Positions 39,431 through 39,889 of a stretch of 64,000 nucleotides of DNA are shown here, one piece after another (position 1 is the stretch's first letter; each line of letters opens with the position of its first letter). The stretch lies in sequence record OL964735.1; one strand, 5' to 3'. Under the pieces are notes generated by a model. It searched no databases and was not told where the DNA came from. It worked only from the letters and a program-made list of their open reading frames with translations. Both the position numbers and the translations under genes were made by a program. The DNA is from Escherichia phage T4.

Positions 39431-39889
39431 TTATTTTAAATCATCTGCCCAATCGAGTTTAAGAGGCTCTTTGTATTCACGATCTAATACGACCGGAATT
39501 TGTACATCACCGCTAAATGATAAGGGCCCAACATTATAAGACAATGTTATATGCGGTGTGTAATCATCAAAATCATGTGTAGCACCTAGTGCCCGCGCAT
39601 ACATGTGTCGACAGCGCAGATATTCAGAATCTAGCACAAGTACAAGAGTCGATCCATCTTGTGTTTTCCATACTTCTAAATGTCCAGAAGAAGCTACTTC
39701 AAAACTTCCACTCGATGGAACATATGGAACATTTACTCTTGAATAACATATAGTCGAATGAATTTTTTCTCTAGGAACTGGATTAGGAACACGTAAAGAG
39801 CGCTGAAGTTCTTCCAGCGCATCAAGTGTTAATTCTGAAAACTTAGCTGCTACATAAAGACCCGTTGAAAAGTCTTTAAATTCCATCAT
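39431..39889 (-). CDS. 57B: 2H phosphoesterase gp57B (I recall this as the anti-CBASS nuclease Acb1)
   Basis: 152 aa; two H-x-T/S-x motifs (HSTICYS and HITLSY) diagnostic of the 2H/LigT fold; position upstream of 57A. Confidence 0.75.

Follow-up and report, generated by a model that had tools for sequence, protein, structure and literature searches.

The open reading frame at positions 39431-39889 on the minus strand of the window, a stretch of 64,000 nt of Escherichia phage T4 DNA (OL964735.1), is almost certainly T4 gene 57B, that is, the gene for Acb1 (anti-CBASS protein 1), a small phosphodiesterase that has the 2H fold and works without metal. The translated sequence is identical to the product of gene 57B in the T4 genome NC_000866.4 (NP_049750.1), which is the accession named Acb1 in PMC9117128. 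The original prediction had identified 57B as Acb1, and this proved correct. The identification was published in 2022, together with the mechanism of the enzyme, its phenotype and the reading of the locus as an anti-defence island; all of this is already known. Here we document the identity with the published protein, the family membership, the presence of all functional residues and the gene order; the enzymatic activity, its loss in the catalytic mutant and the anti-CBASS phenotype have been demonstrated in the literature for exactly this protein. The gene and the parts of it that are discussed below are located as follows.

39431-39889, minus strand: 57B (acb1), 152 amino acids plus the stop codon, assigned by the ORF listing, the RefSeq identity and the Pfam and PDB matches.
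39752-39760, minus strand: codons CAT TCG ACT for H44-S45-T46, the first HxT catalytic motif, aligned to HTT of 7T26.
39545-39553, minus strand: codons CAT ATA ACA for H113-I114-T115, the second HxT catalytic motif, aligned to HIT of 7T26.
39434-39457, minus strand: codons for the C-terminal lid, residues 145-152 (LDWADDLK) with W147, placed by sequence, with the role of the lid taken from PMC9117128.

The ORF had been singled out for two H-x-T/S motifs, HSTICYS and HITLSY, and both are present as quoted. They contain H44-S45-T46 and H113-I114-T115, respectively, with the two histidines 69 residues apart, and they are the only HxT/S motifs in a protein that has five histidines. By itself, however, the motif pair is weak evidence, because 15.9% of 20,000 shuffles of the 57B protein hold at least two HxT/S motifs, and 6.3% hold a pair separated by 50-100 residues. 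These frequencies are what could be cited for a reading in which both motifs arose by chance and the function of the ORF has nothing to do with 2H chemistry. The motif pair is within chance expectation, and it is homology that carries the significance.

In a Pfam search at E ≤ 0.1, the sole match of 57B was the family PF23474, 'Anti-CBASS protein Acb1' (E = 2.7e-60, 202.7 bits against a cut-off of 27), with residues 9-150 aligned to positions 1-144 of the 144-position profile. The best match among solved structures was Acb1 of Erwinia phage FBB1 (7T26/7T27; E = 4.2e-62), with 96 of 142 columns identical (67.6%) and a single gap of one residue. In this alignment, HSTICYS falls on HTTIVYS and HITLSYN falls on HITLSYN. 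The FBB1 structures were described as having a 2H phosphoesterase fold with an HxT/HxT tetrad formed by H44, T46, H113 and T115, in which the bases are stacked by Y12, W74, F107 and W147, adenine is read by E141, and the ligand is covered by a lid of residues 145-152 (PMC9117128). All nine of these residues, as well as the lid 145-152, are present in the protein encoded in the window. The proposed assignment to the 2H phosphoesterases, a superfamily whose pseudo-symmetric alpha/beta fold bears two H-x-T/S motifs, is thus borne out by both motifs and by the identity to 7T26. A single-sequence AlphaFold2 prediction for the 152-residue protein gave an unusable model (mean pLDDT 37.9, pTM 0.30); the predicted 2H fold of the T4 protein is supported by its 67.6% identity to the solved FBB1 structure.

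Conservation was assessed in an alignment (A1) of T4 57B with its homologues from Shigella phage SP18 (84% identity), Klebsiella phage 15882-3 (79%), RB49 (47%) and Acinetobacter phage LemonAid (43%). Residues G10, Y12, H44, T46, H113, T115 and W147 are invariant in these homologues, down to 43% identity, whereas three functional positions vary: an aromatic residue is kept at 74 (W or F) and at 107 (F or Y), and 141 is occupied by E or Q. The comparison with characterised Acb1 proteins that had been suggested as a check therefore finds the catalytic histidines kept both in 7T26 and in the A1 homologues. Mutation of both histidines in T4 Acb1 (H44A/H113A) has been reported to yield a catalytically inactive protein (PMC9117128). 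The homology, over the full length and with the motifs in register, to the Acb1 family and a solved Acb1 structure, the invariance of the motifs in A1 and the published mutants together refute the chance origin of the motifs, a reading to which we assign no weight, and 57B is read as Acb1 throughout the following.

The activity of this protein is known from direct experiments. Hobbs et al. (2022, Nature 605:522) used activity-guided fractionation to purify a 3'3'-cGAMP-degrading activity from T4 lysate (PMC9117128), and its source was the then-uncharacterized T4 gene 57B, which was named Acb1 (NP_049750.1; PMC9117128). T4 Acb1 cleaves 3'3'-cGAMP and cA3 to linear 3'-phosphate products (PMC9117128), and the cleavage of cyclic nucleotides by the T4 enzyme was repeated later (bioRxiv 10.1101/2025.08.21.671373). 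In lysate of cells infected with T4 Δacb1, the hydrolysis of cGAMP is lost, and the same mutant grows normally without CBASS and shows a >300-fold defect when CBASS is active (PMC9117128). Independently, in a T4 transposon library, 57B/acb1 was dispensable on K-12, and only on a host expressing CBASS were its insertions depleted (bioRxiv 10.1101/2025.11.20.689424). During T4 infection, cleavage of cyclic nucleotides is first detected at ~15 min (PMC9117128), an onset that fits the placement of 57B/acb1 in the middle/late class by a transcriptome atlas (bioRxiv 10.64898/2026.03.30.715471). All three checks suggested in the original prediction, namely alignment to characterised Acb1 proteins, HPLC with 3'3'-cGAMP and cA3, and plating of a deletion phage on CBASS hosts, are thus already in print for this very protein, with positive outcomes (PMC9117128). 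Acb1 was the first phage enzyme shown to defeat CBASS through degradation of the cyclic-nucleotide signal, which is why it matters for phage-host biology.

The tetrad has been assigned to metal-independent acid-base catalysis that proceeds via a cyclic phosphate intermediate to a linear 3'-phosphate (PMC9117128). In the published mechanism, Y12, W74, F107 and W147, along with E141, keep a cyclic di- or trinucleotide conformationally strained beneath the lid formed by residues 145-152. The 2'-OH of an adenosine then attacks the 3'-5' phosphodiester bond, with H44, T46, H113 and T115 acting as the acid-base catalysts, and the resulting 2',3'-cyclic phosphate intermediate is hydrolyzed to the linear 3'-phosphate product. 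3'3'-cGAMP, cUA, cAAA and related CBASS signals are destroyed in this way before the killing effectors are activated, and the cleavage of the signal allows the phage to escape abortive infection. Expression of acb1 is middle/late, with acb1 closing a conserved 2-3-1-57A-57B block, and would start from a putative promoter. The late-promoter motif TATAAATA occurs at 40484-40491 (minus) inside gene 1 and at 42843-42850 (minus) upstream of gene 4, and these two sites are only candidates for late transcription of 57A-57B; the count of this motif is uninformative, with 12 copies in the window vs 11.7 expected.

The consequences of Acb1 activity extend beyond CBASS. T4 Acb1 also cleaves 2'3'-c-di-AMP, and this activity triggers the Panoptes guard system; deletion of residues 145-152 from T4 Acb1 abolishes the activation of Panoptes (bioRxiv 10.1101/2025.08.21.671373). 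In the BASEL collection, Panoptes restricts T-even phages whose acb1 is intact, and these escape via mutations in acb1. Thus, acb1 is both a counter-defence gene and, owing to the breadth of the enzyme, a liability, and 'anti-CBASS' does not describe its sole biological consequence.

The names under which 57B is deposited tell a different story. Its product is called 'RNA ligase' in the RefSeq record NC_000866.4, and the match to PHROG 755 (E = 5e-68) bears the same name. A protein search found relatives of acb1 in 1,485 phage records; among those listed, most are named 'RNA ligase' or 'hypothetical protein', and only one has a phosphodiesterase name ('cyclic phosphodiesterase'). Taken at face value, these names would make 57B an enzyme of the LigT / 2'-5' RNA ligase type, for RNA ligation or RNA-end healing, whose main role lay in the repair of RNA or tRNA, beside the T4 tRNA cluster. 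The 2H superfamily includes LigT-type enzymes, and the reaction of Acb1 passes through a 2',3'-cyclic phosphate, as does 2H RNA-end chemistry. However, the LigT / 2'-5' RNA ligase models gave no match to 57B either in Pfam at E ≤ 0.1, where Acb1 is the only family found, or in NCBIfam at E ≤ 1, where the scan returned no family for 57B or ipI. Moreover, the activity that was purified from T4 lysate, and that is lost in Δacb1, is the cleavage of cyclic oligonucleotides, and the normal growth of T4 Δacb1 without CBASS likewise speaks against a main role in RNA repair. We consider such a role exceedingly unlikely, and 57B as an RNA ligase was rejected because no LigT-type model of Pfam or NCBIfam matches. 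For the same reason 'RNA ligase' appears to be an inherited legacy name without support from any match found. Annotation lags behind the 2022 characterisation of Acb1, and since records are still named 'RNA ligase' or 'hypothetical protein', automated pipelines will miss acb1 as a counter-defence gene.

The genomic context of acb1 was analyzed in the region 38000-41600, which matches several phage T4 records, NC_000866.4 (72521-76121) among them, with 100% identity from end to end; other T4 records scored slightly above NC_000866.4 (6650 vs 6645 bits). All genes of this stretch are on the minus strand and, according to the RefSeq annotation, follow one another in transcription order as 4, 2, 3, 1, 57A, 57B, ipI, trna.4, trna.3, trna.2, eight tRNA genes and segB. 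The features adjoining 57B are the following.

39886-40128, minus strand: 57A, tail-fibre assembly chaperone (Pfam PF17594, GP57, E = 5.2e-51; RefSeq), directly upstream of 57B.
39886-39889, minus strand: ATGA overlap of the 57A stop and the 57B start, where the minus-strand sequence reads ...GAAGAATGATGG..., in agreement with the ORF coordinates.
39070-39357, minus strand: ipI, internal protein I (PF11634, E = 7.3e-54; PDB 2JUB), the next gene downstream of acb1.

From the ATGA overlap we infer that 57A and 57B may be translationally coupled; the spacer between 57B and ipI measures 73 nt. In the original prediction, 57B was placed directly downstream of ipI and upstream of 57A. Both neighbors were named correctly, but the order holds only in plus-strand coordinates; since all of these genes are on the minus strand, transcription runs from 57A through 57B to ipI. 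The accompanying claim, that counter-defence functions are concentrated in this short stretch, stands for Acb1 and IPI but does not extend to 57A, which is a tail-fibre chaperone. A further such function is provided by gp2 (41540-42364, minus strand), ~1.6 kb upstream of 57B, which according to RefSeq shields the injected DNA ends from exonuclease V. Three counter-defence functions (Acb1, IPI and gp2) are therefore found inside ~3.3 kb, interleaved with structural and metabolic genes. The position of acb1 next to ipI has already been read as an anti-defence island (PMC9117128).

Outside this region, an ungapped alignment of the window with NC_000866.4 lost register at ~36500-36600, with 79 mismatches counted from 36500, which points to a small indel in the rnaC/rnaD-tRNA region with respect to NC_000866.4.

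The block 2-3-1-57A-57B, including the pairing of 57A with 57B, is conserved in SP18, Klebsiella phage 15882-3, RB49 and Acinetobacter phage LemonAid. The content downstream of 57B varies from phage to phage: a hypothetical gene and genes for internal head proteins in SP18, an internal virion protein in Klebsiella phage 15882-3, small ORFs including dmd in RB49, and small ORFs together with tRNA genes in LemonAid. As judged from this gene order, acb1 is the last gene of a conserved block and lies at the border of a variable region, which in T4 opens with the gene for the injected anti-restriction protein IPI.

In T4 itself, the gene that follows acb1 is bracketed by two direct repeats of 54 nt, which are 81% identical to each other.

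39378-39431, minus strand: upstream copy of the 54-nt repeat, in the spacer between 57B and ipI (repeat search, family D1).
39011-39064, minus strand: downstream copy of the 54-nt repeat, between ipI and trna.4 (repeat search, family D1).

Each copy contains an early-promoter-like sequence, TTTACA-17-TACTAT, with TG before the -10 box, and this is overlapped by a hairpin. In the upstream copy, the promoter-like sequence is at 39417-39389 and the hairpin, of 13 bp, is at 39379-39408 (-17.4 kcal/mol); the hairpin of the downstream copy has a value of -11.6 kcal/mol. Both copies match the consensus TTTACW-N17-TAYWAT described for the PST/T4 PeSL promoters by Comeau et al. 2014 (PMC4122927). Sites of this consensus number 13 in the window vs 0.38 expected, and all of them are on the minus strand, between 7019 and 39417, in keeping with the direction that early transcription takes across this T4 region. 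It was the only enriched promoter pattern, and a generic sigma-70 promoter scan showed no overall enrichment (14 hits vs 17.2 expected). A terminator scan of 38000-42500 gave none near 57B or ipI; there was one hit in the region, which is below the shuffle expectation.

Comparable repeats are found in the related phages. The Klebsiella phage has a 47-nt repeat on both sides of the ip gene directly after acb1 (L003, 2973-3019 and 3269-3315), and in SP18 three ip-like genes that share a conserved leader lie in tandem, with a 63-nt repeat around the next ORF (L002, 3916-3978 and 4250-4312). These arrangements are consistent with ip genes being exchangeable cassettes beside acb1. Promoter/stem-loop repeats bound the cassettes after acb1, which differ between phages and in many cases encode internal proteins that are injected, and this makes the position after acb1 a sensible place to seek new anti-defence genes in T4-like phages.

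Two observations concern the content of this position. In RB49, the variable region after 57B includes dmd (L004, 3689-3892), annotated in the record as 'Dmd discriminator of mRNA degradation'. As an antitoxin, Dmd counters RnlA/LsoA of the host, and the RB49 gene would add, from another T4-like lineage, a further counter-defence gene just downstream of acb1. In T4, three small ORFs, trna.2, trna.3 and trna.4 (38107-38993, minus strand), lie between ipI and the tRNA cluster. They gave no significant match in Pfam or NCBIfam, and the PHROG families to which they belong are all without a known function; trna.4, at 61 aa, resembles a small membrane protein. We regard trna.2, trna.3 and trna.4 as candidate anti-defence genes because of their place in the variable region, right behind two counter-defence genes.

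The function of the product of ipI, the neighbor of acb1, is well established. IPI is packaged in the head (~360 copies), is injected, and inhibits the type IV restriction enzyme GmrSD, which attacks glucosylated T4 DNA (PMC9026906; the function also in PMC9117128). Its sequence consists of the N-terminal leader MKTFKEFTSTTTPVSTITE followed by the mature IPI* domain, residues 20-95, which is matched by PDB 2JUB and, at E = 7.3e-54, by positions 1-76 of the 76-position profile PF11634, 'Nuclease inhibitor from bacteriophage T4'.

The N-terminus of Acb1, MMEFKDFS (39866-39889, minus strand), resembles the leader of IPI, MKTFKEFT (39334-39357), as well as those of IPIII (31894) and IPII (31197), all on the minus strand. 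This likeness raises a lead in which, besides the Acb1 that acts after its synthesis in the cell, a fraction would be packaged in the head by means of a capsid-targeting-like N-terminus, left unprocessed, and injected in the manner of IPI; if true, the cell would contain anti-CBASS activity from the very start of infection. A loose pattern, M..[FY][KQ][DE]F, occurs in only four places in the six frames of the window, namely the starts of Acb1, IPI, IPII and IPIII, but it was written after the match had been seen. The leader of the internal proteins follows MKT[FY]xEF, to which Acb1 has a weak likeness, and the similarity of the leaders at the DNA level was also picked up independently by the repeat search (family D3). 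Capsid targeting depends mainly on residues 4 and 7 of the leader (PMC9026906), and Acb1 has F4 and F7, as does IPI, whereas the processing positions 8 and 10 are unmatched (S8, G10) and the N-terminus differs in the 84%-identical SP18 homologue (MTLNEVSEG). Middle/late expression would agree with the timing of head proteins, but cleavage activity is detected only ~15 min into infection, and Acb1 is missing from the published inventory of T4 head proteins (PMC9026906). A literature search for 57B in connection with the capsid-targeting sequence found no paper linking the two. Because of the post hoc pattern, the lack of conservation in SP18, the absence from the inventory and the onset of activity at ~15 min, the likeness of the leaders is probably due to chance, and packaging of Acb1 is very unlikely.

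Comparison with known systems places the protein encoded in the window as follows. It is the same protein as T4 Acb1 (NP_049750.1; PMC9117128), with an identical sequence in the same 57A/ipI context and no difference from it. FBB1 Acb1 (7T26/7T27), from another phage, aligns with the T4 protein in both HxT motifs, in the aromatic residues that stack on the bases and in the region of the C-terminal lid, but carries an additional residue in the loop that follows T4 residue 80. The chain deposited for FBB1 starts at the equivalent of T4 residue 9, and the N-terminal octapeptide of T4 has no structural counterpart in it. A weak PDB match to 9Q2G (E = 0.004 over residues 8-119) also aligns both HxT motifs. 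This entry belongs to the phage 2H PDE-9 (9Q2G/9Q2Y, deposited as 'Anti-CBASS protein Acb1'), which is placed with T4 Acb1 in one structural group of viral 2H phosphodiesterases and degrades 3'3'-cGAMP (bioRxiv 10.1101/2025.08.21.671373). The two differ in the lid, which is N-terminal in 2H PDE-9 and C-terminal in T4 Acb1, and in their effect on Panoptes: 2H PDE-9 cleaves 2'3'-c-di-AMP poorly and so does not trigger this system, whereas T4 Acb1 does (bioRxiv 10.1101/2025.08.21.671373).

LigT / 2'-5' RNA ligases and cyclic phosphodiesterases of the 2H superfamily share with Acb1 the two HxT/S motifs and a metal-independent 2',3'-cyclic phosphate chemistry. Unlike the LigT-type enzymes, Acb1 acts on cyclic oligonucleotide immune signals rather than on RNA ends, and its sequence does not match their Pfam and NCBIfam models. 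Acb2 (T4 vs.4) and other signal sponges, poxins and Apyc1 resemble Acb1 in that they remove the nucleotide immune signal of the host. They do so in other ways: Acb2 sequesters the signal, whereas Acb1 cleaves it, and poxins and Apyc1 have unrelated folds and mechanisms.
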